53,445 nt of DNA, from assembly GCA_013003395.1 (NCBI GenBank), contig JABDJC010000220.1, positions 1 to 53,445 on the forward strand, written 5' to 3'. The notes beneath the pieces were generated by a model. The model was not told the origin of the DNA. It saw nothing but the letters and a program-made list of their open reading frames with translations, and did no database searches. Below, in pieces: positions 5,998 through 46,522 of this stretch. The DNA comes from Acidimicrobiia bacterium. Lineage in GTDB: Bacteria > Actinomycetota > Acidimicrobiia > Spongiisociales > UBA5794. The translations under genes and the position numbers were made by a program. Each line of letters starts with the position of its first letter. Position 1 is the first letter of the stretch.

Positions 5998-6011
5998 TGA
6001 GAGGAATTCCG

Positions 6012-28557: not shown

Positions 28558-29061
28558 TCAGGCGGTTTCTGCAGCCTCTGCTTCTTCAAGGCGGTTCATC
28601 GCCGCCAAGAACATGACGAACAGGATGAACGATCCGATCATCACCGCAGCCGCCGGTACTCGAATCTGGAATGCGTTCAAACCTTCGATTCGAGCGGGCC
28701 GAAGACCCCGGGGGGCATAGACCACGAAGAGCAGGGAACCAATGGCCAGCCATCCGAAGGAGGCTGCACCTCCGACGAGGAAGGCGAGCCGCTTGCCGAG
28801 GTTCGTGTACAGCAGCAGGAACCCGGTGCCGTTGAAGGCGATCAGTGCCGTCACCGTGACGAGGACACCGCGTGCAGCGATCGAGGCCTGAGTGATCTGT
28901 CCACTCTCGTCGGTGTTTTTGAAGATTGCGTCGTACGCGTCGCCGATGGCGCCTCGGATGGCCGGAACAAAGACAAGAGCGGTGAGGATGACGAGCGCGA
29001 TACCAAGCTTCTCGAGCATCGTGAACCCGGATTCTTCACGGTGAAGCCGCTCGATCATCAC
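28558..29061 (-). CDS. Small polytopic membrane protein, last gene of the Rieske/cyt b operon
   Basis: About 4 TM helices; start overlaps the cytochrome c stop; N-terminus contains EESGFTMLE. Confidence 0.7.
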   Translation of the reverse strand: MMIERLHREESGFTMLEKLGIALVILTALVFVPAIRGAIGDAYDAIFKNTDESGQITQASIAARGVLVTVTALIAFNGTGFLLLYTNLGKRLAFLVGGAASFGWLAIGSLLFVVYAPRGLRPARIEGLNAFQIRVPAAAVMIGSFILFVMFLAAMNRLEEAEAAETA

Positions 29062-30644
29062 ATGGCCCTTTCGTACTGAACAATCAACAAGATGTCATCA
29101 CGCGACAAGATCTGTCCGAAGCCGGGCATCCAGCCGCGACCGATTCCGTTGACCCCATAGTTTTCGGCGAGATTCGAACCATTGATGATGAAGTCGACAT
29201 GCTCGTCAGCGGAGGGGAACTGCAGCACGGACCGACCGTCGAGCAATGACGGTCCCCATGCACCAGAGCCCTCTTCTTGCTGGAAGGCGACCCCGGCTGA
29301 ATATCCGGCCGTGTGGCAACGGGCGCAGTAGCTGTTGAACAGGCCAACGGCACGTGTCGCTGCTTCGACGTCTCCATCAAACGCCTCGGCAGCGAGGGCG
29401 TCGAAATCGACCTCCCAAGCAGCCTCGGCAAGTGCCTCTTCGAGGTACTCCTTGCCGGCTTCTGCCGCTTCCAGGAAGACGTCTTGGCGACTCTGGACCA
29501 CGTTGAGCTGGAGCCGGATCGTGTCGAGCTCGCGGAGCAGACTTTCGGCTTCCTCGAGGTCAGGGATCATGTTGCCCGCAGCATCCTCCATCGAGAAGGC
29601 GTTGTCGGTTCGCAACTCGATGGCAAAGTCAGGGCGGTCGAGGCTCTGGGCCACGTGTGCGAACAATTCGTTGATCGCGCGTTCAGCGTCGTCGGCGAGG
29701 CCGTCCCTGTCGGTGTCCAGATTCCTCATCGAGCAGCTCGTGTTGACGAGTGCGGCAGACGCCGGCGTGCAGGTCTCCCGTGCGATGAATACCGCACGGA
29801 TGTCGGCCGGTGTCGTATCGATCGAAGCGAACAACTCGGGTGCTGCGAGGATGTCTTCTATCGCCTGCACTTGACCGTCCGCTGTTGCGGTGCCGTTGAT
29901 GAGGTCTGTGACGGTCAGCGCCCCGTTGTCGATACGACTGAGTGCCTGGTTGACGGCGCCTTCGACCTCGGCAACCACTTCTGCCTGCGGAATCTGCAAG
30001 GAGCGGATGTATGCCATGACCTGGTCGACTTCTTGACTCGTCATACCGCCACCGCCCTCGAGACCGCTCGCAGGCATCGGGGTACCGTCCCGTCCGTAGA
30101 CGATCCAGAAACGGACCTCGTCATCGGAGTAGCGATAGAAGACGTCATTGAGCGATGGCGCCGACCATGCCGTCGTGAGCTTGCTCCGTGGCTCAATGAA
30201 TTCGGCTGCACCGCCGCCGGCAACTGGACCGTGACAGTTCACGCAAGAGAAGTTGGTGTACCAGCGCTCACCTTCGTGGATGTCGCGCTCGTTTTGTTTC
30301 TCGGCGGCTTCAGCCTGACGGTTGGCCTCTGAGAAGTAGTACACCGGCATGGCGATGGCCAGAACCGCGGCTGATATCACCGCAGCGCCAAGGACCCGAT
30401 TCAGACGGGTGGACTCCATCTCGTCGTCAGATATGAAGGGCTGCTGGTTCGGCGGCGTCTCCTCAGGAGACGGTTCTGCGGTTCGTCCTGTGCGCAGCAA
30501 GTAAGCCACCCAGATGAGCGCCGACACCACAGCAATGGCGATGACAACGGCACCGAGGTCGATCGTGGTGTCGGGTACGACCTCGTCTTCAGTCGCCTCG
30601 ACGGCGAGGATCATCGCGTCGAAGAGTTTCGTTCCAGCGCGCAT
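29058..30644 (-). CDS. Membrane-anchored diheme cytochrome c (c subunit of the Rieske/cyt b complex)
   Basis: Two TM helices; CVNCH with GTPMPA; CARCH with WMPGFG. Confidence 0.88.
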   Translation of the reverse strand: MRAGTKLFDAMILAVEATEDEVVPDTTIDLGAVVIAIAVVSALIWVAYLLRTGRTAEPSPEETPPNQQPFISDDEMESTRLNRVLGAAVISAAVLAIAMPVYYFSEANRQAEAAEKQNERDIHEGERWYTNFSCVNCHGPVAGGGAAEFIEPRSKLTTAWSAPSLNDVFYRYSDDEVRFWIVYGRDGTPMPASGLEGGGGMTSQEVDQVMAYIRSLQIPQAEVVAEVEGAVNQALSRIDNGALTVTDLINGTATADGQVQAIEDILAAPELFASIDTTPADIRAVFIARETCTPASAALVNTSCSMRNLDTDRDGLADDAERAINELFAHVAQSLDRPDFAIELRTDNAFSMEDAAGNMIPDLEEAESLLRELDTIRLQLNVVQSRQDVFLEAAEAGKEYLEEALAEAAWEVDFDALAAEAFDGDVEAATRAVGLFNSYCARCHTAGYSAGVAFQQEEGSGAWGPSLLDGRSVLQFPSADEHVDFIINGSNLAENYGVNGIGRGWMPGFGQILSRDDILLIVQYERAM

Positions 30645-30661: not shown

Positions 30662-31486
30662 TCAGTTGCATGTCGGACCCTGGGGGTACGCGATGGTCTT
30701 GACCGAAGCACGAGGAGTCTGGATGACTTGGCCGGTGTCGATGATGAGATTGCCGTTCGCGTTGACCTCGATCACGAAGCGGTCGAGGTTACGTGGAGCC
30801 GGACCGTCGAAGTACTCGCCGTGGAAGTTGTACTTCGAGCCGTGACATGGGCACTCGAATCCTTGCGAGGGGATGCACTCAGGGACGCGGCAGCCGAGGT
30901 GGACGCATCGCTGCCACAGCGCCATCACGCCACCGGCCACAACGGGAAGTCCCTCGAACGACGATCCTTCGATGTCCGCATCGAACGTAGTCACCCACGA
31001 CTGGGCGGCAGGCAGGAACACTGGCACCAGCGTGCCGTCCGGTTGGTTGATGGCGTCGACGATGTCTTGCACGGAACCCACGTCGATCTTGGCGCCGAAT
31101 CCACCCTTCAGCTTCGGCCAGAAGAAGGCGAGGCCTGCAATGGCGAACTGGGCGAGAAAGATGCCGAAGATGCCGACGAGCGATCGGTTCAGAAACTGAC
31201 GCCGCGTGACATCGTATTCGTCTTTGGTGATGGTCGTCCGCTCGAGCAACGGATCCTTCACCGGCTCAGGATGTTCGGCTACCAGTACGTCTCCGGCCGC
31301 AACATCGGCAGCGTCGACGGACCCTACACGACGGGTGCGTGCCCGATCGCGTGCCCGTGCCTTGCGGCTGAGACGACCTGTGCTCTCGGGTTGCTTCTCC
31401 CGCCGTCCCGCGACAGCAAAGATGCTCACGAATGCGAGCACCGCAACGGCGGCGATAGCCACGATGAAGATCTGTGTCGTGTTCAA
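30662..31486 (-). CDS. Rieske [2Fe-2S] protein
   Basis: CVHLGC and CPCHGSKY, GPAPRNL, Tat motif TRRQFL; TTG start overlaps the upstream stop. Confidence 0.92.
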   Translation of the reverse strand: MNTTQIFIVAIAAVAVLAFVSIFAVAGRREKQPESTGRLSRKARARDRARTRRVGSVDAADVAAGDVLVAEHPEPVKDPLLERTTITKDEYDVTRRQFLNRSLVGIFGIFLAQFAIAGLAFFWPKLKGGFGAKIDVGSVQDIVDAINQPDGTLVPVFLPAAQSWVTTFDADIEGSSFEGLPVVAGGVMALWQRCVHLGCRVPECIPSQGFECPCHGSKYNFHGEYFDGPAPRNLDRFVIEVNANGNLIIDTGQVIQTPRASVKTIAYPQGPTCN

Positions 31487-32397
31487 AAGTCGAAGAATAT
31501 CCCGTCTGCCCAAGGATACGTGAAGTTGAACCCTGGGCCTCTGAAGAACGAACCGAAGATGGTCAAGATTGCTGATGCCATGACAAAGAACGTGAAGATC
31601 ATTATGGCCAGTTTGCGGTCATTGGGCCGCACCGAAGGGTTCTTGTCGATGTAGGGGATGAAAGCGATGGCCGCGATGCCGAAGCCAGGAATGATCACGC
31701 CTGCGACTTGGGGATCGAAGTAGCTCAACAGTTCCTGCAAGCCGAGGAAGTACCACGGAGCCTTCGACGGGTTCGGCTGTTCGTTGAAGTTGGCCAACTC
31801 CAACAGGGGAGCATCGACGAAGACCGAAAAGACCAGCAGGAATGCCGTCATCACCATCAAGGCGACAAACTCGGCAGCGACGAGGTGGGGCCACGTGTTG
31901 ACCTTGTCGTGCGGTTCCTTCTTCACCTGCTGAATGGCGTTGGCCTTGACGACCGTAAGGAGACGTTGGGTCCGAACTCCGGCGGGTATTGCAGCTACTG
32001 GGGCAGCGGCAGGAGCCGCTGCTGCGCCGCCACCACCGCCTGCGGCCACGGGTGCCGCCGGCGCAGCGCCCGGAAGCGCGATGCCGTCGGCCTTGGCGCG
32101 TGCTCTCGTGCTGCGTTCGATGAGCGATTCGGGTACGCCAACGTCGGCCATTGCTGCGAAGCCCTCGAGGGCCGCTCCACCGGGGTCAGCGGCAGCGGGT
32201 GCTGCGGCGGCAGGTTCTGGCGCCACAGCCTCGGCGACTGGAGCCGCGGCGGGCTCGCCGGCTGGAGCCGCAGCAGGCGCTGAGCCGCCCTCGGGTGCGA
32301 GACCCATTTCGGCAAGGATCTCGTCGAGCGGTCGACCTTCCGCCTTGGCACGCGCCGCCGCGGAGCGTCTGAGGATGGATTCAGGTATCTCAGCCAA
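31483..32397 (-). CDS. Cytochrome b subunit IV (PetD-like) with Ala/Pro-rich N-terminal extension
   Basis: WPHL, NPSKAPWYFLGLQELL (PEWY equivalent), IPYIDKNP and three TM helices. Confidence 0.85.
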   Translation of the reverse strand: MAEIPESILRRSAAARAKAEGRPLDEILAEMGLAPEGGSAPAAAPAGEPAAAPVAEAVAPEPAAAAPAAADPGGAALEGFAAMADVGVPESLIERSTRARAKADGIALPGAAPAAPVAAGGGGGAAAAPAAAPVAAIPAGVRTQRLLTVVKANAIQQVKKEPHDKVNTWPHLVAAEFVALMVMTAFLLVFSVFVDAPLLELANFNEQPNPSKAPWYFLGLQELLSYFDPQVAGVIIPGFGIAAIAFIPYIDKNPSVRPNDRKLAIMIFTFFVMASAILTIFGSFFRGPGFNFTYPWADGIFFDF

Positions 32398-32406: not shown

Positions 32407-33192
<786 letters not shown>

Positions 33193-33288: not shown

Positions 33289-33735
33289 TCACCACCGCAT
33301 CCCGTAGGAGTAACCGTTCTTGAAATCGCGGTCACCGGTGTCCACATCCCACGGAGCCAAACCGAGCTCTTCGCCCTGCTGAGCCAACGAGCCCTCGAAT
33401 TTGCCGAGGGTGATGACGTTGGTCGGACACCGGTCTACGCACAGCGCACACCGCGTACATTCGTCCTCGTCGACCACGAAGATTCCGAAGTTCGATTCGT
33501 CCATTCGCGGGTCGCTGACGTTCGTGGCCTCGGCGATTGCGTCGACTGAGAGGTAGTGGATGCACTTCCACGGACAGATGTCGACACAGCCCTCGCACAG
33601 GATGCACTCGGATTGGTTGATGTGCAGGAACTGTTTGGGCTTGACCGCAGCCTTCAAGTAGTCACCAGACACCTCGGTCAGTTGGTAGTCGTCACGCATC
33701 GGGGGCGTTTCGAACCAGACGTCATTCTTGGCCAT
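33289..33735 (-). CDS. 2x[4Fe-4S] dicluster ferredoxin
   Basis: CILCEGCVDICP and CTRCALCVDRCP motifs. Confidence 0.92.
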   Translation of the reverse strand: MAKNDVWFETPPMRDDYQLTEVSGDYLKAAVKPKQFLHINQSECILCEGCVDICPWKCIHYLSVDAIAEATNVSDPRMDESNFGIFVVDEDECTRCALCVDRCPTNVITLGKFEGSLAQQGEELGLAPWDVDTGDRDFKNGYSYGMRW

Positions 33736-34322
33736 CAGGCATCACCAATCATCGGTCGACCGTACGCCGAGATCTCGACAGGAGGTGGTGCGTCCCGCCT
33801 CGCCTTCTCGCGATTCTGCCACCAGACCATCACTGCGGGCCAGGCGAGGAGCGCCGTCGTCGAGTAACCGGCCGACACAACGTCCTTGATGACTGCGTAG
33901 GAGATCGTGACCTCATTGTTCAACGTGAGCGCTCGCGGGAGTGAGAACGCAATCTTCTGCGGTGTCCATTCGAGTTGGCTCTGCGTGAGCGTGAGCCACT
34001 GATTGGGAATCATGCCGAAGATGATCAGCGACTCGACCACGAACACTGCCGCACCGATGCTGGCTCGAGCCCAGGTCATGGGGCGCTCCCAGACAAACGC
34101 AACCACGATGCCGATCAAAGCGATCTGTCCGCCGGTGATGGCGATGAGTTGGCCGATCGAGGTCCAGACCCAACCACGCGGGATGAACTCGTAGATGGGC
34201 TCGTCGAACTGGTTGACCGGAGAGAGTTCCGTGAAGTGGGCCCACAACACGCCGATCGTGAGGATGACGGAACCACCGACCATGGCTGCAATGCCAAGGC
34301 GCAAGCGCTTCTGGTCTGTCAC
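33735..34322 (-). CDS. Uncharacterised 4-TM membrane protein, first gene of the Rieske/cyt b operon
   Basis: GGAGGA RBS then GTG at 34322; hydrophobic helices; stop overlaps the ferredoxin ATG. Confidence 0.7.
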   Translation of the reverse strand: MTDQKRLRLGIAAMVGGSVILTIGVLWAHFTELSPVNQFDEPIYEFIPRGWVWTSIGQLIAITGGQIALIGIVVAFVWERPMTWARASIGAAVFVVESLIIFGMIPNQWLTLTQSQLEWTPQKIAFSLPRALTLNNEVTISYAVIKDVVSAGYSTTALLAWPAVMVWWQNREKARRDAPPPVEISAYGRPMIGDA

Positions 34323-34537
34323 GGTGCGTCCTCCTGGCAACTCATCGATCGCGCGGTGGTCATTGTACGCATGAGTGCGCATCCTAAAGGTCTGCAGGAG
34401 TCTGTTGGCAACATGCTCCGATGAGGACCTCGCGTCAGTCGACGACCGGCGATCCGCGACAGATTCCATAGAGATGATGGCGGGTCGCGAACACCGCTAG
34501 GCTTGCGGCCCGCAGGCCCGCATTCCACGGAGGAACG

Positions 34538-36475
34538 GTGAGCGCAGAGATCCAGGCAACCGAAGCGACCTCCCTGTCTGACGGGGATGTGGCCGCTGCC
34601 AACAGCACATCGTTGGCGCACCTCAGAGTTGCCGGCGCATTTCTCGTTGCAGCTGCGCTACTGGGAATGGTGGCCGCATTCCAGATCGTTGCCCCCGACT
34701 TGCTCAGCGGCGTCGAGATGTTCTCCTACGGCCGGATCGCTCCTGTCGCGCTCGACACCTTCATCTACGGGTGGCTGACGATCGGACTCATCGGGGCTGC
34801 CTATCACATTCTTCCAAAGGTCTCTGAAGCGCCCTTGTGGAATCCGATGCTTGCGAAGACGGGCCTTGGCCTGATCACGCTCGGTGTGGCCATCGGCGGC
34901 CTGGCGGTGCTCTCTGGCTTCAACGAGGGCCGACTGCTGCTCGAGTATCCACTCTGGGCAGACGCGCTCATCGTGTTGGGCGTCGCAATCGCCGCATTCG
35001 TTTGCACGAAGACCGTGTCAGGCGGACAAAAGGACCTGATGCCTGCCCAGTGGTTCCTCGTTGCAGCACCGTGGTGGTTCGTGTTCAGTTTCGTCAGCGG
35101 AAACCTTCCTGGAATCCCGGGTGTCAATTCGCAGCTGCTGACCTCGTTCTTCCAATCCAGCTTCACCGGGCTGTGGCTCGCTGCGGCCGGCGTTGGCGTT
35201 GTCTATCACATCGTTCCTGCACTGACCGGTCACGGCCAGCGGCGGTCCTCGCGGATCTCGCTCATCGTGTTCTGGTCGCTCGCATTCGCCTGGGCCTGGA
35301 CCGGTCCACGATTCAATGTGTACGGACCGGTGCCTGACTGGCTCGAGACCATCGGTGCGTTCTTTGCGATCGGGCTGTTGGTGCCGGCAATCGCAGTCAT
35401 CGCGGACGTCGCATTCACCGTGCGCGACCGTTGGGATCACGTGACCAACCAGGCGGCGATCCGCTACCTCGCTGCCGGCTTCGTCTTCTTCACGATTGCG
35501 GCGGTCCAGAACATGGTGCAGTCGCTTCGGTCGCCTAGTGCGGTCTTGCAGTTCACTGCATGGCAATCGGCTTTCGACCTCGTCTTGTTCTATGGCGCCA
35601 TCTCGTTCTGGCTGTTCGCATTCGTCTCGGTCTCGCTGCCTGCGCTCGCGGGACGCCGTCCCACCGACGTATCGGCGCAGGTGCACTTCGGTGTGTCCGT
35701 CTCTGGTTTGCTGCTCGCCGTCGGAGCATCCTGGTTTGGTGGCCTGCAGCAAGGGCTGACATGGATCGGCACCGCGAACACCGAGGACGTGCTGCCCTAC
35801 GGCGAACAGTTCATCAATTCGGTTGGTCCACTCGAGGGTCCGTGGCTGCTGCGTGCCTTTGGACTGGCACTGTTTGCGCTGGCACAGTTCCTGTTCCTTC
35901 GTTCCCTGTTCGGCGCCGGCGCCGAGGCCACCGATGTAGACCGGGTTGTCGTAGACGATGACGGGGACGATCCAGCGGTCCTCGATCCGGCTCCGCCTGT
36001 GTTGCTGGGCGGGCTGTTGAAAGGCGCCGTCGGCTTGTTTGCCGTTGCGGCTCTCTCAGTTTGGATCCTGCCCAGCTTTGAAGCCGAAAACGTCGAAGGC
36101 ACCATCCTCGGCGACTTCAGCCGCTTCTATGAAGAGGGATCGGATGAGGCTGCCGGTCGACAGATCTACCTCCAGGAAGGCTGCTGGTACTGCCACACAC
36201 AACAAGTCCGACCGATCGTCACCGATGTCGGACTCGGACCCGTGAGCCAGGCAGGAGACTACGTGCACGAGACCCCGGCGATGTTCGGGGTGCAACGGAT
36301 CGGGCCCGACTTGATGCACTCCGGCTCCAGAGAGCCGACGGACTCGGTCGCCTGGCTGACTGCGTATCTCAACGACCCCCGCGCGGTGCGGCCTTGGTCG
36401 ACGATGCCCGCGTATGGCAGTCTGAGTGACACAGAAATCTCGCAACTGGCCGCCTATCTCGTGAGTCTCGACTGA
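34538..36475 (+). CDS. cbb3-type oxidase CcoN-like (ligand-less) domain fused to a CcoO monoheme cytochrome c
   Basis: FSYGR, GRLLLEYP and TGP...YGPVPDWL match CcoN framework motifs. The C-terminus has GCWYCHTQQVRP, RIGPDL and STMPAY. Confidence 0.85.
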   Translation: MSAEIQATEATSLSDGDVAAANSTSLAHLRVAGAFLVAAALLGMVAAFQIVAPDLLSGVEMFSYGRIAPVALDTFIYGWLTIGLIGAAYHILPKVSEAPLWNPMLAKTGLGLITLGVAIGGLAVLSGFNEGRLLLEYPLWADALIVLGVAIAAFVCTKTVSGGQKDLMPAQWFLVAAPWWFVFSFVSGNLPGIPGVNSQLLTSFFQSSFTGLWLAAAGVGVVYHIVPALTGHGQRRSSRISLIVFWSLAFAWAWTGPRFNVYGPVPDWLETIGAFFAIGLLVPAIAVIADVAFTVRDRWDHVTNQAAIRYLAAGFVFFTIAAVQNMVQSLRSPSAVLQFTAWQSAFDLVLFYGAISFWLFAFVSVSLPALAGRRPTDVSAQVHFGVSVSGLLLAVGASWFGGLQQGLTWIGTANTEDVLPYGEQFINSVGPLEGPWLLRAFGLALFALAQFLFLRSLFGAGAEATDVDRVVVDDDGDDPAVLDPAPPVLLGGLLKGAVGLFAVAALSVWILPSFEAENVEGTILGDFSRFYEEGSDEAAGRQIYLQEGCWYCHTQQVRPIVTDVGLGPVSQAGDYVHETPAMFGVQRIGPDLMHSGSREPTDSVAWLTAYLNDPRAVRPWSTMPAYGSLSDTEISQLAAYLVSLD

Positions 36476-36477: not shown

Positions 36478-37338
36478 ATGCAAGAACAGCTCGCTTCCAT
36501 CTCCGCTGAACTGGGAGTTCCAACCGACCTGGTGGAACGTGCGGCACGTGCTCGCGCCACCGCTACCGGGACGACGGTGGAGCAGATCGTTGCTGCCTGG
36601 AGCGGCGGAGAGGCGGCGCCGGCAGCGGCAGCTCCTCCCGCAGCGTCTGCAGCCGCTCCTGCAGCTGCCCCGGCGGCGGCGGCTCCTGCAGCGCCGGCTG
36701 GGCCGATCGTCGAAATCTTCGAGCCAACGGCCGCTCCGCCTGAAGTTGAAGTAGAGGTTGAACCTGAGGTGCCCGAGCCCGTGAAGCGTCGGGCCGTGCC
36801 CGTTTGGATGATGGCCACGTTCGTCGCGATTCCCGCAGTGGCCCTCATGTACGCATTGTTGATTCCGAACGGGCCAGACTGCGGAGGTGGCGGCCAACTC
36901 GCCATCGATCCCGTCACTGGAGTTGCGCAGTCTTGCGATGGTTCTGAATACGGTGTCAGCGCGGTCGATTTCTTCGCGATGGGCAGCGACCTGTACGCCA
37001 CCCAATGTGCGGCTTGCCACGGTGCGGAAGGCGGCGGCGGCGCCGGCCCCGCATTCACCGGAGGAGCAGTCCTCGCCAGTTTTCCCACTGATCAGTGTGC
37101 GACCCACGTCGAGTGGGTGGCTCTGGGGAGCAGCGCCTGGCCGGAAGCCACCTATGGAGCGTTGGACACACCAGTCGGCAGCAGTGGTGGCGTGATGCCA
37201 GGCTTCGGGTCACGCCTGTCACCGGAAGAGCTAGCAGCCGTCGTGCTCTATGAGCGTGTGGCGTTCGGTGGAGAGGGCATCGGAGTTGCAGAGGCCGATT
37301 GCGGACTCGGCGACGAAGCGGTTGCTGCCGGCGAATAG
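36478..37338 (+). CDS. Membrane-anchored monoheme cytochrome c with Ala/Pro-rich N-terminal arm
   Basis: One TM; CAACH; VMPGFG; 2 nt downstream of the CcoNO-like gene. Confidence 0.88.
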   Translation: MQEQLASISAELGVPTDLVERAARARATATGTTVEQIVAAWSGGEAAPAAAAPPAASAAAPAAAPAAAAPAAPAGPIVEIFEPTAAPPEVEVEVEPEVPEPVKRRAVPVWMMATFVAIPAVALMYALLIPNGPDCGGGGQLAIDPVTGVAQSCDGSEYGVSAVDFFAMGSDLYATQCAACHGAEGGGGAGPAFTGGAVLASFPTDQCATHVEWVALGSSAWPEATYGALDTPVGSSGGVMPGFGSRLSPEELAAVVLYERVAFGGEGIGVAEADCGLGDEAVAAGE

Positions 37339-37384: not shown

Positions 37385-38641
37385 GTGGGTAACGTCCTCA
37401 TCGTGAATCCAGAAGTAGTGATCGTTGGCGGTGGGCCGGGCGGAGCGGCGGCGGCCTATTGGCTTGCTCGCTCAGGTCACTCGGTAGTCCTCGCCGAAAA
37501 GAAGCGATTCCCGCGAGACAAGACCTGCGGTGACGGGCTCACACCCCGAGCAATACATCAACTGACCGAGATGGGATTCGACTTCGCGGTGCCGGAGCTG
37601 CACAAGATCGTGGGATTGCGAGCGTACGCCGGCGGAGTGAAGCTCGAGATGCCTTGGCCCGATCACAGCATCTACCCCAACTGGGGAGCAGTGATTCGTC
37701 GGACCGACCTGGACATGCAGGTTGCTGCCCTCGCCGAAAAGCAAGGGGCGCTCATTCTGCAGGGCACCACGGCTGAACCGGTCGTCGAGGGAGGCCGACT
37801 CACTGGCGTGCGATTGAAAGACGGCGATGGCGACGAGCGCTTGGTCCACCCCAAGGTCACCGTCATCGCGGACGGATCCCTCTCCAGGTTTGGGCGCAAA
37901 CTCGGCACCGAGCGCAACAAGGCGTATCCGTACGGATTGGCCGTGAGGGGGTACTACAACTCACCGCGGTCCGACGACCAATATCTCGAGTCACACCTCG
38001 ACATCCGAGACAGCAATGGCAGCCCACTTCCTGGCTACGGCTGGATCTTCCCGCTCGGTGATGGCCAACTGAACATCGGGGCAGGAGCCGTGTCAACCTT
38101 CAAGGGTTGGAAGGAATTCAATTCGAACAAGCTCATGGACGCACTGATCGAAGCCCTTCCTGAGTACTGGGGGGTCACGCCGGAATCGGTGGTTGTGGCG
38201 CCAAAAGGCGGCAAGCTCCCGATGACGTTCTCGGTTTCGCCGAAGGCCGGCCCGAATTGGGTGCTGGTTGGAGATGCAGCAGGAGCAGTGAACGCGTTCA
38301 ACGGTGAAGGCATCGATTACGGGTACGAAACCGGTCGCCTCGCCGCCCACTACATCTCGCAAGCAATCGGAAGCGATGATCTCGGCTTGCTGCAGAACTA
38401 TCCCGCTGCGCTCGAAGACCAATACGGCTTGTACAACAAGGTCGCTCGCCTGTTCTTGACGGCGATTGGAAGGCCCCAAGTGATGGGTGCTCTGGTCCGG
38501 ACGGGAATGCGGTCACGGCCGCTGATGGAATGGGTGTTGAAGGTGATGGCCAACCTGATGGAGCCGGAGGACCGGGGCTTCGGAGAACAGGTCTACGGCG
38601 CGATCGAACGAATCGTACGCGTCACTCCTGACGTGCGCTGA
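37385..38641 (+). CDS. Geranylgeranyl reductase family (MenJ-like menaquinone side-chain reductase)
   Basis: GGGPGG, FPRDKTCGDGLTPR, PGYGWIFP and GDAAG...NGEGI. Start may instead be GTG 37403. Confidence 0.85.
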   Translation: MGNVLIVNPEVVIVGGGPGGAAAAYWLARSGHSVVLAEKKRFPRDKTCGDGLTPRAIHQLTEMGFDFAVPELHKIVGLRAYAGGVKLEMPWPDHSIYPNWGAVIRRTDLDMQVAALAEKQGALILQGTTAEPVVEGGRLTGVRLKDGDGDERLVHPKVTVIADGSLSRFGRKLGTERNKAYPYGLAVRGYYNSPRSDDQYLESHLDIRDSNGSPLPGYGWIFPLGDGQLNIGAGAVSTFKGWKEFNSNKLMDALIEALPEYWGVTPESVVVAPKGGKLPMTFSVSPKAGPNWVLVGDAAGAVNAFNGEGIDYGYETGRLAAHYISQAIGSDDLGLLQNYPAALEDQYGLYNKVARLFLTAIGRPQVMGALVRTGMRSRPLMEWVLKVMANLMEPEDRGFGEQVYGAIERIVRVTPDVR

Positions 38642-38743: not shown

Positions 38744-41700
38744 TTGCCAATCGAGCCGTTCGTGAACACACAAACCACTTCTAAATCCGTAGACACCGCG
38801 CGTCGATGGGAGGGCCGTCCGGTCCTCTCATTCGCCGTGCGTTCTGCAGTCTTTCTGCTTCCGATCCTGGCGTCGATCGGAGTATCCGTGGGATTGTCCA
38901 AGGCGGCCCCATCGCCTGACAACGTGATCCAGCTCGGGCTGATCTGGTTGGTGATCATCGTGGCGTCGACGGCAACTCTCATGAGCGTGGAGAAAGTGGC
39001 TCGCAAGGCGCTCCCGCTGGCAGCGATGCTGAGCCTCACGATGGTGTTTCCGGATCAATCGCCGTCGCGTTTCCGAACTGCCCTTCGATCTGGCTCATCA
39101 GTGAAGAATCTTCGCGCCATCCTGGCCGAGGCCGAGTCGGTGGACGACAACTCGCCGGCTAAATCAGCTGAGTTGGTGTTGCAGCTGGCCACGGCACTCA
39201 ACACTCACGACCCTCGCACCCGTGGTCATGCCGAGCGCGTTCGGGCTTACACGGAGATGTTGGCCGAAGAAATGAACATCGGCGACGAGGACCGGGCAAA
39301 ACTGCGTTGGGCGTCATTGCTTCACGACATCGGCAAGTTGAAGGTCTCCACCGACATCTTGAACAAGCCAGGCAAACTCGACGACGACGAGTGGGAGCAG
39401 ATCAAGCTACACCCGGTCTTCGGTGAGGAGATTTGCGGACCTCTCCTCGACTGGCTCGGACCATGGGCCGGAGCGGTTGTCGATCACCACGAGCGCTTTG
39501 ACGGAAACGGGTACCCACACGGCAAGGCCGGTAGCGAGATCTCGCAAGCCGGCCGGATCGTCTGTGTCGCAGATGCGTACGACGTGATGACGACGGTGCG
39601 TTCCTACAAGGAACCGATGTCGACGGCCGAGGCTCGCCAAGAGCTGGCGCGTCACGCCGGAGCCCAGTTCGATCCAAAGGTCGTGCGGACGTTCCTGAAT
39701 CTCTCGATGGGCCGCCTGCGATGGATCGCTGGTCCGTTGTCGTGGCTGGCGCAGCTGCCGTTCCTCCAAGGTCTGGCCGGTGTGGCGCAGAGCGTCGGGT
39801 CGACGGTTGGTGTTGCCGCAGTCGCGACGGGCGGGGCTGCCGCCGCCCTCACGACCGGAGTCGTGACCTTGCCAGGCAGCGGACCGCTCGAGCTTCCGGA
39901 ACCACCTCCCGCATTGGTGCAATTCGTCGACACGCAATACGCACCCGTCGCCAGAGACGATTTCGCAACTGCAACGCAAGACGCGCGGCGAGTCATCGAC
40001 GTGTTGAACAACGATGCGCTGTCGAGCATTGACACCCTGGCGATCGTCGTCGACCCGTCGTTCGGAACCGTCATCGTCAACGCCGACGGCACCGTCACCT
40101 ACATTCCGTCCGGCGAGTACGTCGGTGAGGACGAATTCGTCTACGAAGTTATCGACAGCGGCGGGCAATCGACGACGGCAACGGTCGTGATCACGGTGGT
40201 TGGGGTCAATGATGCGCCGATCGTCCGAGGCGACTCTGCGACCGTCGACGAAGACGACGCAGTCGATATCGATGTGCTTGCAAACGACAGCGACGCAGAT
40301 GGGGCCATCGCCGCCATCGAGCTCGTCGGCCAACCTTCGAACGGCGTCGCAACCCTCAACAGCAACTTGACGGTCAACTACCGGCCAGATGCCGACTTCT
40401 TCGGATCTGATCTGATCACCTACGTCGCCATCGATGAGGATGGCGCACGGTCGGAGGGCACCGTCGCAGTGGTGGTCCGGCCGGTCAACGACCCTGTCGT
40501 CGATCCGGGGCCGGGGACGCTCGTGGCGGCTGGGGGCAAGACTGTTCGTTTCGACCCGCTGGCGCTGGCCGTCGACAAAGACGGGGACACAGTGTTCCTC
40601 GCATGGTTCGACTCGATCTCGATCGCTGGAGGCACTGTCGTCGAGGGAAGTCTCATCTACACACCGCCATATGCGTACTCGGGTTCCGACTCCTTCCGTT
40701 ATGCGCTGTCGGACGGAATCGTCGAGACCGTCGTAACCGTACGGCTCGATGTACGGGGCACCCCGGACACAGCTGGACCCACGATCACGCTGCTCGGCCC
40801 GAACCCGCTGGTCCTGAACATCGGTGACGAGTTCACCGATCCAGGGGCGCAGGTCGCAGACGCCGACCCATCCTTCAAACCATCGTTCATAGTCGACGCT
40901 ACCGCCGTCGATACGAGCAAGGCCGGTTCGTATCTCGTCGTCTACACGTCGACCGACCCGACGGGGAACACGTCGACCCGCACAAGGACCGTCGTCGTGG
41001 AAGACCCGAACGGCCCTCAACTGTTGGTCAAGGGTTCGAATCCGCTCACGATGGAGGCCGGACAGCTGTACGTCGAGGCCGGCGCCACCGCCTCCGACGC
41101 GAAAGACGGTGACCTCACCGCGTCGGTCATCGTCGACGCTTCGCTGCTCAATGCCGGTCGACCAGGAACCTATACGGTCTCATATCGAGTCACCGACTCG
41201 GATGGAAAGCAGGCCACAGCGCAACGCACGGTCAAAGTGATCGACACCACGAAGCCCAAGATCGTGCTGAAGGGCGCCGATCCGCAGACCATCGAAGCCG
41301 GTGGGGCCTATGTGGAACTCGGTGCCACGGCGGCAGACAACGACACCAGCTTCGCCGCGAGCGCTGTCCCTGATGCCAGCGGCGTGGACGCCTCTCGTCC
41401 CGGTACCTACACCGTCACGTACTCAGTCAGCGACTCTTCGGGCAACAGCGCAAACCCGGCAGTCCGAACGGTGAACGTCGTGGACACGACGAAGCCTGTC
41501 ATCACACTGCAAGGAGCGAACCCTCAGAACATCGAGACCGGCAATCCCTATGTGGAATTGGGAGCAACGGCTACCGACAACGACGCGACGTTCACAGCAT
41601 CGCCAACCGCGGACACCTCGGGGGTCAACACGTCTGTCTCTGGCACCTATACCGTCGTCTATACAGTCGCCGACGCATCGGGTAACACCACAACCAAGAA

Positions 41701-44700
41701 CCGAACCGTTGTTGTGGGCGACATCACGCCGCCAGTCGTCACCCCTACCGGTGCGAATCCGCAGGTCATCGAAGCCGGGAGTGCGTATGTGGAGTTGGGT
41801 GCGACGGCCACGGACAACGACCCGACATTTGCGGCTGTGCCGAGCGCCGACTCGTCGAGTGTCAACACGTCGGTTCCTGGCTCGTACTCGGTGGTGTATT
41901 CGGTGACTGATCCGTCCGGCAACACGGGGACTGCAAACCGGACCGTGGCGGTGGTGGACACGACCGCCCCGGTCATCACGGTGATTGGCAGCAATCCGCA
42001 GGTGATCGAGGCCGGGAGTGCGTATGTGGAGTTGGGTGCGACGGCGACGGACAATGATGCGACGTTCTCGGCGACGCCTACAGCGAATTCGTCGGGAGTG
42101 AATACGTCGGTTCCTGGGTCGTACTCGGTGAGCTATTCGGTGACGGATCCGTCTGGCAACACGGGGACTGCAAACCGGAGCGTGACGGTGGTGGACACGA
42201 CGGCCCCGGTCATCACGGTGATTGGCAGCAATCCGCAGGTGATCGAAGCCGGCGCGGCGTATGTGGAGTTGGGTGCAACGGCGACGGACAATGATGCGAC
42301 GTTCTCAACGACGCCTACGGCGAATTCGTCGGGAGTGAACACGTCGATTCCTGGGTCGTACTCGGTGAGCTATTCGGTGACCGATCCGTCGGGGAACATC
42401 GGGACTGCCAATCGGACGGTGGCGGTGGTGGATACGACTGCTCCGGTCATCAGCCCAACTGGCGCCAATCCGCAAGTCATCGAGGCTGGAGCGCCCTACG
42501 TCGAACTCGGAGCAACGGCGACCGACAACGACGCCACTTTCGGTGGGGTGCCGGCTGCGGACGCGTCTGGAGTGGATACCTCAACACCTGGTTCATATCT
42601 CGTGGCGTATTCGGTCACTGATCCGTCCGGCAACATCGGGACGGCGAATCGAACCGTTGCCGTGGTAGATACGACCGACCCCGTAATCACGGTGACCGGT
42701 GCCGATCCCCAGACCATCGAGGCCGGCTCTTCCTATTCAGAACTCGGAGCATCAGCCACGGACAACGACGCGTCGTTCTCAGCTTCGCCAGTCCCAGACG
42801 CGTCAGGCGTAGACACCGCAACGCCGGGTTCGTACATCGTGGTTTATTCCGTGACCGATCCGTCCGGGAACACCGGCACCGCGAGCCGCGGCGTTGACGT
42901 GGTCGACACCACGCCGCCCGTCGTGACCGCGAGCCAGACGGGTGCGGTCCTCGAGACAGCCACTGTCGGCACGACGGTGATGACCGTCGCCGCAACCGAC
43001 ACCGTGGGAGTCACCGGATTCACCATCGTCGGGGGATCGCCCACGTTCTCGATCGACGCGGCCGGAGTGATCCGCACGTTGGTCCTGCTCGATCACGAAA
43101 CGACGTCGTCATACGGCCTGTCGATCACCGCGACCGATGATGCCGGCAACACATCTGCTGCGGAAACCGTCACCGTCGATGTCGACGACGTCAATGAGCC
43201 GCCGATCGCGGTCAACGATGGAGGTTTCTCAACAACCACTGATGTGACTATCTCTATCGACTCGGCCGACCTGCTCAGCAACGACAGCGATCCCGATGCA
43301 GAGAGCCCGATCTTCGATGACGTTGTCAGCACGACGACCACGCAGGGTGGAACCATCGAGGATCCGGAGAGCGACGGTGTCTACCTGTATACGCCGCCGG
43401 CCGGTGTCGACGGGATCACGGACACGTTCGACTATCGAATCCGCGATGCGCTCGGGCTCACGGACACTGCAACGGTGAGCATCTCGATCGGATCGGCGGT
43501 CTCCGACCCGGCGTTGACCAGCATCGACCCGGCAAGTAGCCCGGCGAGCCCGATCCAAGCGGTGGTCGGCCAGGAGACCCGGATCGACGTGTACGTGCAA
43601 AACCTCTCGGGCGACCCCGCACCGGGTGTCGAGATCACGGTGACGGTCGACAGCGCCGACTTCCTCCTCGTCAACTCGGGAGGATGCTCGCAGACGGCGA
43701 CGGAGGTCGTGTGTCTGCTCGGCAAGGTGAATTCGCTCCAGATCAAGAGCCACAAGGTGGAGTTGGTGCCCCAGAACGTCGGATCCGGCTGGGCGTTGCC
43801 GGTGGTCGTGACGATGAACGGCTCGGACACCGACGGCACCAACAACTCGGGAACGATCTATTTGGACGTCACGCCCACCCCGCTGCTCGTCAGCGAGTTC
43901 GCCACCGAGGGGCCGGGCGACTTCATTGAGCTGTACAACGCCGGGACCTCCGACATCGACATCGCCGGCCTCGAGGTGCGCCTAAACGGCGCTGGTGTGA
44001 GCGACATCACGCTGGCCGGTGCCGACACGGTGCTCGCACCAGGTGAGCATTTTCTCCTAGCCGACGATGCGGGCGACCTCGACGGGGCTGCCGACCAGAC
44101 GTTCGCCTTCGATTTGCCGGCGGATCTGGGTATTCGGATCCGGGATGCTTCGGGTGTCGTCGATGAAGTCGGGACAGGGACGTCGTCGTGGTTCGAGGGT
44201 GCTGCGCTCCCGGCGATGGTGGTGGACCCAACAACAGAGCAGAGCTACGAGCGCCTCGACAGCTCCACCTCCGGGAGCTGCGTCGACACCGGAGACAACG
44301 GCGCCGACTTCATCCGCCACTGGGACCATCGGGATCCGCAGGCGACCGACGACCTGGCGACGCCATGCGGTGCGCCCCTCTACGTGGTGTCTGCCGACGC
44401 CGGTGTCGTGGTGGTCAACGAACTGTTGTATTCCCAGACGGGGGCGAAGGACGAGTTCATTGAGCTCTACAACGCCGGGGGCTCGGACTACGACCTGACG
44501 GGCTTGCGGCTGACCGACTCGAGTCCGTTCACCGGTCACGTCGACCCCAACGATCCCCTCGACTTCACGATTCCCGCAACCGACCTGGCGTCCAACCCAT
44601 CGACGCTTCCCCCAGGTGGCATCGCCGTCATCTGGCTCCAAGAGGACGGTGGCGACACCGGCGCGGCGCTGCACTACAACGTCGATGAAGGGGACCCTGG

Positions 44701-46522
44701 AGTGCTTTCCAACGTGGCCGACGAAGTCTGGCTCGTGGACACTTCAGGCGCCATTGTCGATTATGTCGCCTATGGGGCCGCCAACACCGGAGAGAGGGAC
44801 ACGCCCATTCCAGATGCTCTCGGCATGTGGAACGCCGCCGGTGAAGCCGCGCTCGGCGGCGTCGCAGCCGGCACTTCCATCGCCCTCACCCCCTCAGGCC
44901 TCGATTCCGATGACAGCGCGTGTTGGGAGGTGACCGGTACCGGAACATCGTCCTGCGGTCCGGGCACTGTCGACCTCGACGCAGCCGCCGGTCGAGTGAC
45001 GTCCGTCGGCAGCAACAACAACAATCTGGTTGCCGACGTTGCGTTCCACAGTTCCGTGCCTGCGGGGAACTTGGCGAATCCCGTCCAAGTCACGACCGGC
45101 GTGCCGATGACCATCGACATCACCGCGGAGAACCGCGGCCCATCTCAAGCGCCGGCGTCGAAGGTGTTGCTGCCGCTCGCAACCGGCGAATTCGCGTTCA
45201 ACGGTGGACCCAGCTCGCCCGGATGCGCCTACGACGCGGTCGACCAGGAGGTCACGTGCTCCATCGGTGTTCTGGCGTCCGGAAACAGCGAAACGGTGAC
45301 GATAGGTATCACACCACTCCTTCCAGGCAGCTACACCTTGGCCCTCAGCGTGAATTCGGTCTCGGCGACGGATCCCGATCTGACCAACAACGCGGGCGCA
45401 ATCTCCGTCGACGTCGTACCCACGCCCACACACGTCGTGATCAGTGAGTTCTCGACGGATCGTGCCACGGACTTCGTCGAGCTGTACAACCCGACCAGCG
45501 CTCCGGTGCTGCTCGATGGCTATACGCTCAGGGTGTACCCGCCCGATGGCACGGCAGGCTTCACCGTGGAAGCAACCATCCCACTCGCCAGCTCGACGTT
45601 CATCCCCGCGAACGGCTACTTCCTCATCGGAAACACACCGGATTTGGCACCCGTGGCGGCGGATCATGCGGCGAGCTTCGACGTGGCGCAGTACGGCGGC
45701 GTGGAGATCGCCGACGCGCTCGGAGCCGCGATCGACGGTGCCGGCACGGCGCCTCGCCCTGGGGGCGGCCCGAACGAGCAAGGTGCCGCCTCGAGTGAGG
45801 GCAACGGCGTCGCCGCGATGAACCCCGGCCCGAACGAGCAGTCGATGCAGCGAAGGCACGGCGACGGCCTTGGCAGCTGCATCGACACAGACGACAACGC
45901 CTCAGACTTCGTCCACAACAACGGTGGCGTGAGCCCCAAGAACACCTCGACGGTTGAAGCCTGCGGAACTCCGCCGCTTCCGCCCCCGTCGTCGGCGGCC
46001 GGCGTGGTCATCTCGGAGATCCGGACCGATGGTCCCAATGGCGGTGGCGACGAGATGATCGAGATCTTCAACGCCGGACCGACCTCGGTCGACCTCTTGA
46101 ACTGGGAGCTGCAAGTCGGCGATGGCTTCACTTTGATCTTCAGGTTCAATTCTTTGATCCTCGAGCCAGGTCAGCACTTCCTGTTCGCCACTGCGTCGTC
46201 CGGACTGACGGCCGACACGATCTACGGGCCCGGTGGTACCTCGATCCACGGCACGCTGTTCACGACCGACACCGTCACCAACGGTGCCGCCGTGAGGATC
46301 GTCGACGGCGGCGGAACGCCCATCGACACGGTCGGGTTCGACGGTCCCCCGGCGGAGGGGAATTCCCTGCCGTCACTGTCTACACGAGGGCCGAGCTACG
46401 AGCGCCGGGGCGGAGGCGCCTACGGCAGCTGTGTCGACACCGGCGACAACCTCAGCGACTTCTACATCCGCTCGGTGCCCGATCCTCAAACGCTGGGTGA
46501 CCCGTTCGCCATCTGTTTGTGA
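38744..46522 (+). CDS. Giant HD-GYP phosphodiesterase fused to an adhesin-like ectodomain (Big_9/cadherin-like, 9 DUF5011-like Ig repeats, 2 DUF11-like, 4 lamin-tail domains)
   Basis: TRGHAERV, LHDIGK, HHERFDGNGYP and ADAYDVM; a hydrophobic segment; VNDAP/VNDP repeats; DTTxPVIT repeats; four (S/N)E...(F/M)(I/V)E(L/I)(Y/F)N motifs. Confidence 0.88.
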   Translation: MPIEPFVNTQTTSKSVDTARRWEGRPVLSFAVRSAVFLLPILASIGVSVGLSKAAPSPDNVIQLGLIWLVIIVASTATLMSVEKVARKALPLAAMLSLTMVFPDQSPSRFRTALRSGSSVKNLRAILAEAESVDDNSPAKSAELVLQLATALNTHDPRTRGHAERVRAYTEMLAEEMNIGDEDRAKLRWASLLHDIGKLKVSTDILNKPGKLDDDEWEQIKLHPVFGEEICGPLLDWLGPWAGAVVDHHERFDGNGYPHGKAGSEISQAGRIVCVADAYDVMTTVRSYKEPMSTAEARQELARHAGAQFDPKVVRTFLNLSMGRLRWIAGPLSWLAQLPFLQGLAGVAQSVGSTVGVAAVATGGAAAALTTGVVTLPGSGPLELPEPPPALVQFVDTQYAPVARDDFATATQDARRVIDVLNNDALSSIDTLAIVVDPSFGTVIVNADGTVTYIPSGEYVGEDEFVYEVIDSGGQSTTATVVITVVGVNDAPIVRGDSATVDEDDAVDIDVLANDSDADGAIAAIELVGQPSNGVATLNSNLTVNYRPDADFFGSDLITYVAIDEDGARSEGTVAVVVRPVNDPVVDPGPGTLVAAGGKTVRFDPLALAVDKDGDTVFLAWFDSISIAGGTVVEGSLIYTPPYAYSGSDSFRYALSDGIVETVVTVRLDVRGTPDTAGPTITLLGPNPLVLNIGDEFTDPGAQVADADPSFKPSFIVDATAVDTSKAGSYLVVYTSTDPTGNTSTRTRTVVVEDPNGPQLLVKGSNPLTMEAGQLYVEAGATASDAKDGDLTASVIVDASLLNAGRPGTYTVSYRVTDSDGKQATAQRTVKVIDTTKPKIVLKGADPQTIEAGGAYVELGATAADNDTSFAASAVPDASGVDASRPGTYTVTYSVSDSSGNSANPAVRTVNVVDTTKPVITLQGANPQNIETGNPYVELGATATDNDATFTASPTADTSGVNTSVSGTYTVVYTVADASGNTTTKNRTVVVGDITPPVVTPTGANPQVIEAGSAYVELGATATDNDPTFAAVPSADSSSVNTSVPGSYSVVYSVTDPSGNTGTANRTVAVVDTTAPVITVIGSNPQVIEAGSAYVELGATATDNDATFSATPTANSSGVNTSVPGSYSVSYSVTDPSGNTGTANRSVTVVDTTAPVITVIGSNPQVIEAGAAYVELGATATDNDATFSTTPTANSSGVNTSIPGSYSVSYSVTDPSGNIGTANRTVAVVDTTAPVISPTGANPQVIEAGAPYVELGATATDNDATFGGVPAADASGVDTSTPGSYLVAYSVTDPSGNIGTANRTVAVVDTTDPVITVTGADPQTIEAGSSYSELGASATDNDASFSASPVPDASGVDTATPGSYIVVYSVTDPSGNTGTASRGVDVVDTTPPVVTASQTGAVLETATVGTTVMTVAATDTVGVTGFTIVGGSPTFSIDAAGVIRTLVLLDHETTSSYGLSITATDDAGNTSAAETVTVDVDDVNEPPIAVNDGGFSTTTDVTISIDSADLLSNDSDPDAESPIFDDVVSTTTTQGGTIEDPESDGVYLYTPPAGVDGITDTFDYRIRDALGLTDTATVSISIGSAVSDPALTSIDPASSPASPIQAVVGQETRIDVYVQNLSGDPAPGVEITVTVDSADFLLVNSGGCSQTATEVVCLLGKVNSLQIKSHKVELVPQNVGSGWALPVVVTMNGSDTDGTNNSGTIYLDVTPTPLLVSEFATEGPGDFIELYNAGTSDIDIAGLEVRLNGAGVSDITLAGADTVLAPGEHFLLADDAGDLDGAADQTFAFDLPADLGIRIRDASGVVDEVGTGTSSWFEGAALPAMVVDPTTEQSYERLDSSTSGSCVDTGDNGADFIRHWDHRDPQATDDLATPCGAPLYVVSADAGVVVVNELLYSQTGAKDEFIELYNAGGSDYDLTGLRLTDSSPFTGHVDPNDPLDFTIPATDLASNPSTLPPGGIAVIWLQEDGGDTGAALHYNVDEGDPGVLSNVADEVWLVDTSGAIVDYVAYGAANTGERDTPIPDALGMWNAAGEAALGGVAAGTSIALTPSGLDSDDSACWEVTGTGTSSCGPGTVDLDAAAGRVTSVGSNNNNLVADVAFHSSVPAGNLANPVQVTTGVPMTIDITAENRGPSQAPASKVLLPLATGEFAFNGGPSSPGCAYDAVDQEVTCSIGVLASGNSETVTIGITPLLPGSYTLALSVNSVSATDPDLTNNAGAISVDVVPTPTHVVISEFSTDRATDFVELYNPTSAPVLLDGYTLRVYPPDGTAGFTVEATIPLASSTFIPANGYFLIGNTPDLAPVAADHAASFDVAQYGGVEIADALGAAIDGAGTAPRPGGGPNEQGAASSEGNGVAAMNPGPNEQSMQRRHGDGLGSCIDTDDNASDFVHNNGGVSPKNTSTVEACGTPPLPPPSSAAGVVISEIRTDGPNGGGDEMIEIFNAGPTSVDLLNWELQVGDGFTLIFRFNSLILEPGQHFLFATASSGLTADTIYGPGGTSIHGTLFTTDTVTNGAAVRIVDGGGTPIDTVGFDGPPAEGNSLPSLSTRGPSYERRGGGAYGSCVDTGDNLSDFYIRSVPDPQTLGDPFAICL
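40766..42904 (+). repeat. Nine tandem Ig-like coding repeats of about 237 bp (79 aa)
   Basis: Repeat starts at 41720, 41957, 42194, 42431 and 42668 are exactly 237 bp apart; units 6 and 7 are near-identical in DNA. Confidence 0.9.

Follow-up and report, generated by a model that had tools for sequence, protein, structure and literature searches.

A ligand-less CcoN–CcoO fusion of Acidimicrobiia as a putative non-catalytic scaffold beside a Rieske/b6 complex

Six His ligands define the haem-copper superfamily. In its cbb3-type members CcoO hands electrons to the haem b of CcoN, and the two subunits can be fused (NF011053), as they also are in genuine Bacteroidota enzymes of 600–615 amino acids (aa) with six His. 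Here we describe an open reading frame (ORF) at positions 34538–36475 of a 53,445-nucleotide (nt) stretch of DNA from an Acidimicrobiia bacterium (GenBank assembly GCA_013003395.1, contig JABDJC010000220.1, forward strand; this whole stretch is called the window below). Its product resembles the cbb3 CcoN–CcoO core (Pseudomonas stutzeri, 3MK7) in the 12-helix fold, the CcoO anchor helix, and the CxxCH motif with its Met. In contrast to that core, all six His and the cross-linked Tyr are gone, about 30 further CcoN columns are lost, the C-terminal third of CcoO is absent, and the CcoN half fused to CcoO has no haem b ligands. A cytochrome c gene follows the ORF as ccoP does, but the product is monohaem and matches ccoP weakly (E 6.4e-4, 19 bits versus 180).

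The setting of the ORF also has described counterparts. They are the bc1–cbb3 supercomplexes (Rhodobacter capsulatus 6XKW, Pseudomonas aeruginosa 8SMR) and the Rieske/cytochrome b–ccoNO clusters of Acidobacteriota and other groups. Rieske and cytochrome b genes adjoin ccoN/O, and many of the genuine, His-bearing loci that we fetched show the same linkage. The accessible part of one source describes membrane-anchored c cytochromes as links in the solved supercomplexes (PMC7876108). In those assemblies the oxidase partner is catalytic, whereas the protein studied here has no catalytic centre and so cannot be the electron sink. The gene clusters also differ in that those of the window are divergent rather than co-linear.

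Within the same phylum, the actinobacterial bcc–aa3 supercomplex uses a dihaem QcrC to wire complex III to the oxidase. The operon in the window likewise encodes a dihaem cytochrome c (weak NF050122 match), with no soluble-carrier logic implied. Unlike the bcc–aa3 system, however, the window has a b6-style split cytochrome b together with ferredoxin-like and DUF7139-like genes, the oxidases of the genome look caa3-type, and nothing in the supercomplex as described corresponds to the CcoN/O-like module. Divergent haem-copper oxidoreductases form a further point of comparison. As far as the accessible part of a survey goes, the newly defined eNOR, bNOR, sNOR, gNOR and nNOR families do without the active-site Tyr and do not act as O2 reductases (10.1101/2021.10.15.464467). 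The same portion describes these families as retaining their haem and metal ligands, gNOR alone changing one active-site His, whereas here all six are lost and the metal site has disappeared with them.

The ORF product is a non-catalytic descendant of the cbb3 CcoN–CcoO core. Our best explanation, to which we assign a probability of roughly 0.55, is that it acts as a non-catalytic scaffold for a relay of c-type haems from the b6-type complex to caa3 oxidases.

We assessed the ORF at the level of domains, ligand columns and predicted fold. It opens with GTG and runs uninterrupted to its stop at 36475, giving a product of 645 aa. Pfam COX1 matched aa 27–442 (116.6 bits, cut-off 34.8) and FixO matched aa 536–635 (86.2 bits, cut-off 29.6), the latter only over profile positions 49–146 of 219, hence the missing C-terminal third of CcoO. 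Among NCBIfam models the CcoN/O fusion NF011053 came closest, yet its 203.8 bits fall far short of the 1080 required; the ccoN equivalog TIGR00780 reached 117.9 bits (cut-off 583.15) and the ccoO equivalog TIGR00781 reached 84 (cut-off 200.65). A phmmer search of the PDB aligned aa 40–451 with P. stutzeri CcoN (3mk7_A, E 6.8e-19). Read residue by residue, the ligand columns changed from H60 to A71, H207 to S207, Y251 to W252, H257 to R258, H258 to F259, H345 to F346 and H347 to L348, so that both low-spin haem b His, the proximal His of haem b3, the three CuB His and the cross-link Tyr are all missing. The altered motifs are YGRIAPVA at 64, SFFQSS at 203, WAWTGPRF at 252 and SAFDL at 344, and the CcoN half contains six His in total. 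In the C-terminal 146 aa, CWYCH and STMPAY line up with the haem and MP motifs of solved CcoO chains. An AlphaFold2 model built on a 42-row alignment was confident (predicted local distance difference test, pLDDT, 88.5; predicted template modelling score 0.92), with twelve helices between aa 15 and 457, an acidic low-confidence linker at aa 467–477, one anchor helix and a cytochrome c domain. Its top Foldseek matches were CcoN chains, with template modelling scores of 0.87–0.90 normalised to the target.

Because the canonical ligands of haem b, haem b3 and CuB are missing, the protein should not reduce O2 or NO at a haem-copper site, and we regard this loss of haem-copper chemistry by canonical ligands with high confidence. 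It failed on five defining features of CcoN and is therefore not to be filed as a cbb3 oxidase. An earlier note, made from the sequence of this window, had reported the same four motif changes, an intact CxxCH and axial Met in the CcoO part, and an uninterrupted ORF in a window without an active ccoN. All of these held up: the alignment it had proposed places the substitutions in the ligand columns themselves, with all six His and the Tyr replaced rather than shifted, and neither the window nor the 82%-complete genome yielded an intact ccoN. The source labels likewise agree with the class Acidimicrobiia that it had named. Ligands shifted to other positions were considered and rejected, as the clade described below has no conserved His, Cys or Met column.

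Relatives of the protein share its condition. A word-indexed protein search returned 45 homologues with 38–88% identity and one 478-aa protein consisting of CcoN only; where labels were given, they read 'cbb3-type cytochrome c oxidase subunit I [Acidimicrobiia bacterium]'. We aligned 42 database homologues after excluding the short or partial P0027, P0031, P0036 and P0043. None of the six ligand His was present in 41 of the 42, one was present in P0034, and the cross-link Tyr was found in 0/42; a stray His lies two residues past the haem b column in four. The fused homologues retained CxxCH in 41/41 cases and the CcoO Met in 40/41. Scanning one genome per species yielded 80 loci, 30 of them ligand-less and 50 genuine with the full RPxH/HN/HH/HxH set. 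The genuine loci came from Acidobacteriota, Bacteroidota, Melainabacteria, Planctomycetota, Symbiobacterium and others. The ligand-less ones were labelled Acidimicrobiia or Actinomycetota, except for two uncultured-bacterium records, one Saprospiraceae record (L012) and one Gammaproteobacteria record (L022). The last two were rejected as evidence for the clade outside Actinomycetota: both nest within the ligand-less clade, and L012 has an Acidimicrobiia-type flanking operon with a cytochrome b6 85% identical to that of the window, while the upstream sequence of L022 is too short. Mis-binned contigs are the likelier cause for both. All 14 loci fetched from the class of the window were ligand-less and retained CxxCH.

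The counts separate the two forms sharply. Of 45 ligand-less loci counted exactly, 44 hold none of the six His and one holds a single one, versus 6/6 in all 49 genuine CcoN, out of the 50 loci, that entered the count. In a wider set read from loci, 47 of 52 ligand-less sequences have 0/6, four have 1/6 and one has 2/6, versus 6/6 in 52/52 genuine ones. A single ligand His remains in P0034, L031, L122 and L123, and two remain in L126. The A71 column is His in 49/49 genuine CcoN and Ala in 71% of the 45 ligand-less sequences; the cross-link column is Tyr in 0/45 of the latter and in 47/49 of the former, the remaining two being gapped. A comparison of 94 aligned sequences shows that, of the columns with at least 90% conservation in genuine CcoN, about 30 besides the ligands no longer keep the consensus residue in the ligand-less set, among them R68, N73, E133, Y134, N155, Y168, Y205, F214, N290, T294, Q324, G325, W385 and R439. 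The columns common to both sets are mostly Gly, Pro and Trp, that is, packing positions.

The ORF is nonetheless maintained by purifying selection, a conclusion in which we have high confidence. The ratio of nonsynonymous to synonymous substitution rates (dN/dS; Nei–Gojobori, NG86) for the CcoN half was 0.061, 0.185, 0.111, 0.185, 0.234 and 0.211 in six pairs, values that are approximate with dS at 0.6–1.25 and near saturation. These ratios are similar to those of neighbouring genes. Orthologues, which the earlier note had wanted compared, are ligand-less as well and lend no support to decay. For the trees, fragments shorter than 400 aa or containing X were excluded. A quick IQ-TREE search parted 45 ligand-less from 49 genuine sequences by one branch (Shimodaira–Hasegawa-like approximate likelihood ratio test 100), and FastTree parted 52 from 52 by one branch with local support 100. 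This fits, and does not prove, a single origin of the ligand-less clade, as the trees are unrooted, have long branches and include the ligand columns. Ligand-less branches are much longer than genuine CcoN branches. The proposal that CcoO outconserves CcoN only in the dead form was dropped, since genuine enzymes show the same in 72/91 pairs, in a comparison whose taxon ranges are unequal; the lower CcoN identity is then the sole difference.

We then considered the distribution of the family in 301 genomes of the class and in 251 genomes sampled at phylum level; the tallies include three unpublished genomes (G254, G212 and G377), which contributed no sequence and on which alone no claim rests. 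The family profile matched 125/301 genomes of the class, and a cytochrome b6 orthologue was found in 289/301. The fused CcoN/O form occurs in families f1, f3, f7 and f13, and separate ccoN-like and ccoO-like genes occur in f2, f4, f5, f8, f16 and f12, which makes the fusion secondary. The gene is still kept in the f12 genomes, which are about 1 Mb. In the phylum sample, 33/251 genomes matched the profile. Ten loci fetched from other classes comprised three genuine ones with six His (f50, f70 and f72), six ligand-less ones with 0 or 1 of the six His (f56 and f58) and one with 2/6 (f51). Even relatives with as little as 25–33% identity, in two classes, keep the frame open over its full length. 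Actinomycetota thus contains both live and dead forms of CcoN; the genuine six-His CcoN of L119, L124 and L125 (genomes G332, G361 and G384) belong to three other families of the phylum.

The neighbourhood of the ORF is conserved as well (Table 1). The Rieske/b6 operon begins 68 nt from the ORF on the opposite strand. The divergent layout, with the membrane protein, ferredoxin, cytochrome b6, subunit IV, Rieske protein and dihaem cytochrome c on one side and the CcoN/O-like protein, cytochrome c and MenJ-like protein on the other, was found in 25 of the 30 ligand-less loci. The remaining five comprise two whose contig stops at the DUF7139-like gene, two lacking upstream sequence altogether, and L011. 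It recurred in 13 of 14 further loci, L089 being the exception. The MenJ-like flavoprotein, at 316.5 bits, fell short of the 700 set for the equivalog but reached the cut-off of the geranylgeranyl-reductase subfamily. Within the 82%-complete genome, the cytochrome b6 is the sole cytochrome b detected and the ORF the sole FixO match, and apart from the ORF, COX1 matches only a pair of A-type subunits I, at 534 and 528 bits. The search for other oxidases that the earlier note had proposed accordingly turned up two COX2–COX1 clusters elsewhere (L001 and L002, contigs C47 and C243), one with COX3 and the other ending inside COX1. With 457 and 415 aa, both COX2 are long, and each has a CxxCH, by which the oxidases look caa3-type.

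Table 1. Coordinates of the ORF, its parts and neighbouring features in the window
Feature	Positions	Strand	Basis
CcoN-like domain fused to CcoO-type monohaem cytochrome c, 645 aa	34538..36475	+	Pfam, NCBIfam, phmmer, AlphaFold2, Foldseek
CcoN-like 12-helix domain, aa 1–470, without haem b, haem b3 and CuB ligands	34538..35947	+	
Codon A71, column of haem b ligand His60 (P. stutzeri CcoN)	34748..34750	+	phmmer alignment
Codon S207, column of CuB ligand His207	35156..35158	+	
Codon W252, column of cross-linked Tyr251	35291..35293	+	
Codons R258-F259, columns of CuB ligands His257/His258	35309..35314	+	
Helix aa 267–289 (PDWLETIG...), clade-specific D267/E270, predicted contact for anchor helix of downstream cytochrome c	35336..35404	+	
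Codons F346-D347-L348, columns of His345 (haem b3) and His347 (haem b)	35573..35581	+	
CcoO anchor helix, aa 490–513	36005..36076	+	AlphaFold2 model
CcoO-type cytochrome c domain, aa 536–645	36143..36472	+	FixO match
CWYCH, aa 549–553	36182..36196	+	
Met623 (in STMPAY, aa 621–626)	36404..36406	+	
Anchored monohaem cytochrome c, 286 aa, start 2 nt after ORF stop	36478..37338	+	
N-terminal module of downstream cytochrome c	36478..36612	+	
MenJ-like geranylgeranyl-reductase-family flavoprotein, syntenic in most relatives	37385..38641	+	
2592-aa protein with N-terminal HD/HD_5 domain	38744..46522	+	
Complex I genes	47421..53445		
Membrane protein, weak DUF7139 match, first gene of divergent Rieske/b6 operon	33735..34469	-	
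2x[4Fe-4S] ferredoxin-like gene, Rieske/b6 operon	33289..33735	-	
Cytochrome b6 (split N-terminal half)	32407..33192	-	
Subunit IV (cytochrome b C-terminal half), two N-terminal module copies	31483..32397	-	
N-terminal module copies of subunit IV	32038..32397	-	
Rieske iron-sulfur subunit	30662..31513	-	
Dihaem cytochrome c, 528 aa, about 300 residues between two CxxCH	29058..30644	-	

Several features of the surrounding genes stand on their own. The DUF7139-like and ferredoxin-like genes are conserved class-wide with or without CcoN/O-like genes (ferredoxin 53–80% identical; L004–L031, L086–L112), and a cytoplasmic Fe–S subunit within a Rieske/b complex is unusual. The cytochrome b6 of the window exceeds the NCBIfam ExtP cut-off (305 versus 290). 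In L122 (G350:C1:730400-748000), from another class of Actinomycetota, the Rieske/b6 operon and the ligand-less ccoN/O are separated by a system I cytochrome c maturation cluster of CcmA, B, C, E and F (features at 2148–6760 and 12100–14999); a polyprenyl synthase and a CtaA–CtaB fusion come next. Family f56 shows these maturation genes between the two units, with haem A synthesis genes after them. Further downstream in the window, the 2592-aa protein carries its HD/HD_5 domain at aa 149–313. Cadherin-like and Big_9 domains come after it, along with nine surface Ig-like repeats and four lamin-tail domains, so that the protein couples a cytoplasmic signalling-type domain with a very long array of surface repeats. 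The complex I genes at the end of the window include a NuoD-type 49-kDa subunit, apparently with a fused N-terminal extension, and NuoG.

We next asked which proteins the ORF product may contact. The cytochrome c encoded downstream consists of an N-terminal cytoplasmic module, an Ala/Pro linker, an anchor helix, an insert forming a Cys135–Cys153 hairpin, and CAACH at 177–181. Predicting its residues 100–286 in complex with the ORF product from unpaired alignments gave docking scores of 0.72, 0.70 and 0.70 against 0.00 for the best control, where the mark used is reached by 58/80 solved complexes and 2/110 mismatched pairs. Contacts were at least 95% concordant between runs, with partner pLDDT of at least 81. 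In the predicted complex, the anchor helix of the cytochrome c (107–126) lies on helix 267–289 of the CcoN half, and the hairpin (129–160) lies on residues 413–416 and on the CcoO loop 557–569. The prediction thus supports, short of demonstrating, binding of the downstream cytochrome c to the ORF product.

Inserts in the neighbouring cytochromes c follow the presence of the CcoN/O-like module. The hairpin (aa 129–160) occurs in 30/30 cytochrome c orthologues of lineages with CcoN/O-like genes and in 0/9 of those without. In the dihaem cytochrome c, the spacing between the two CxxCH motifs has a median of 304 residues with the module (range 276–361, n=31) and of 155 without it (range 139–299, n=13). 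In the dihaem protein of the window, the two haem domains are set apart by some 190 inserted residues (aa 216–408), a segment that is acidic, probably helical and unmatched in Pfam. Additionally, the N-terminal cytoplasmic module (about 30–45 aa, consensus near PE..V.RSA.ARA.A.G...E.VL..W) has one copy in the downstream cytochrome c and two in subunit IV (BLASTP E 3e-7). It has no Pfam match, and a search of the 31,720 six-frame ORFs from the genome matched only these two proteins significantly. Up to three copies of the module occur in the relatives L015, L019, L026 and L098.

These observations can be arranged into a mechanism. The CcoN half retains the 12-helix fold of subunit I but cannot hold haem b, haem b3 or CuB by canonical ligands. 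Selection maintains its helix packing and, more strongly, the CcoO-type domain, which covalently carries a single c-type haem outside the membrane. This dead CcoN is most likely a membrane scaffold for this haem domain, and the docking model suggests that it is also a docking platform for the cytochrome c encoded 2 nt downstream, in which case the two proteins would form a two-haem c-type module. From its gene context, we infer that the module sits with the Rieske/b6 complex, where it would most likely carry or buffer electrons from the dihaem cytochrome c of the complex to the caa3-type oxidases.

Several points weigh against a role in electron relay beside the Rieske/b6 complex. The module is dispensable for that complex: 13/13 loci from eight families without a profile match have the Rieske/b6 operon and no CcoN- or CcoO-like ORF (two hidden Markov models, 0 hits), with a cytochrome c nearby in 9/13 and a MenJ-like gene in 10/13. 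Linkage also fails in individual loci. L011 has 7.7 kb of upstream sequence without Rieske or cytochrome b genes, L089 lacks a Rieske/b gene in 19.5 kb and has its ccoN-like and ccoO-like genes 5.4 kb apart, and a downstream cytochrome c of the kind in the window was not found in f56 and f58 of the second class. The docking pass may come partly from likeness to solved CcoN–CcoP complexes. The correlations of hairpin and spacing come from related lineages and may reflect one event each, and the spacing has exceptions in L111 (299) and L108 (238). With no haem b beneath it, the CcoO haem c has no obvious acceptor inside the protein. The CcoO core shows no stronger conservation than in genuine oxidases, with median pairwise identities in ligand-less and genuine sequences of 0.46 and 0.47, compared with 0.33 and 0.39 for CcoN. 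Finally, no RNA run was found among the 15 holders of this sequence, which come from five metagenome studies of beach sand or marine sediment (DNA or unknown).

A more specific form of the relay is a tentative proposal that we would not favour over its absence. Here the dead oxidase would be a fixed structural and electronic bridge, running from the b6c-type complex through the ligand-less CcoN/O and the anchored cytochrome c to caa3, in a respiratory supercomplex of Actinomycetota that has not been described so far. A fossil cbb3 enzyme would then have been exapted as wire and glue linking complex III and complex IV, and it may have co-evolved with the insert of the anchored cytochrome c, the insert of the dihaem cytochrome c and the shared cytoplasmic tether module.

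Inactive enzyme homologues serve as structural subunits in mitochondrial complexes, and the ORF product could likewise act in structure or assembly only, stabilising or assembling the Rieske/b6 complex, caa3 or a supercomplex, with its CcoO haem playing a structural part. The scaffold-like pattern of conservation, the absence of the module from many families and the lack of an internal acceptor for the CcoO haem all agree with this. On the other hand, CxxCH and Met are kept almost invariantly and the predicted partner is itself a cytochrome c, which is easier to explain if redox chemistry matters. We consider a purely structural role unlikely on this account.

Membrane folds are occasionally reused as conductors or transporters, and the retained 12-helix fold with its high model confidence would suit an ion or proton conductor, or a transporter, that reuses the oxidase channels without redox chemistry. 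The only clade-specific polar or charged membrane columns are D267 (82%) and E270 (78%), both of which fall in the predicted interface with the cytochrome c, and the polar columns E133, Y134, N155, Y168, Y205, S236, N290, T294 and Q324 of genuine CcoN are lost. A conductor is accordingly improbable. The earlier note had offered an ion-conducting or sensor subunit alongside a repurposed scaffold or cytochrome anchor next to the Rieske/cytochrome b complex; of these, the scaffold or anchor fits best, with the twelve helices it expected recovered in the model, and the conducting or sensing role found no support. The note had not noticed that the fusion is secondary, that many Acidimicrobiia families lack the module, that the clade reaches a further class of Actinomycetota, or that two caa3-type operons lie elsewhere in the genome.

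The old pocket might instead hold haem or metal by non-canonical ligands, or another cofactor, making the protein a redox enzyme or sensor. Some haem-copper families do have altered active sites, according to the accessible part of the survey (10.1101/2021.10.15.464467), and a few members of the clade carry stray or residual His near ligand columns. A conserved candidate ligand is nevertheless missing: among the 45 ligand-less sequences no His, Cys or Met column reaches 60%, the best being H383 in 24/45. The CcoN part contains a median of 5 His, compared with 13 in genuine sequences, and the haem-propionate Arg and the Glu–Tyr columns are lost. Searches for CcoS (PF03597) and FixH/CcoH (PF05751) gave no match, which is weak evidence in a genome 82% complete. 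We regard such a cofactor as very improbable. Simple decay of a recently inactivated ccoNO heading for loss, for which the far longer ligand-less branches could be cited, is contradicted by the dN/dS of 0.06–0.23 in the CcoN half, and the full-length frames in two classes, the retention in genomes of about 1 Mb and the confident model also speak against it.

We found no description of a ligand-less CcoN clade in open-access papers and bioRxiv preprints. In the accessible part of the haem-copper survey, the active-site His are completely conserved save for the one change in gNOR (10.1101/2021.10.15.464467). A clade that lacks all six His yet remains under purifying selection would be a clear case of a pseudo-enzyme in the superfamily. 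Public records name the ligand-less proteins cbb3-type oxidase subunit I, and a study of metagenome-assembled genomes, as far as its accessible part goes, attributes cbb3 oxidases to Acidimicrobiia bins (PMC8357290). If the genes in those bins belong to the ligand-less clade, surveys based on gene presence would overstate high-affinity, low-oxygen respiration in this group. The locus also provides a concrete, testable hypothesis for the route that electrons may take from a ferredoxin-bearing b6-type complex to the oxidases.

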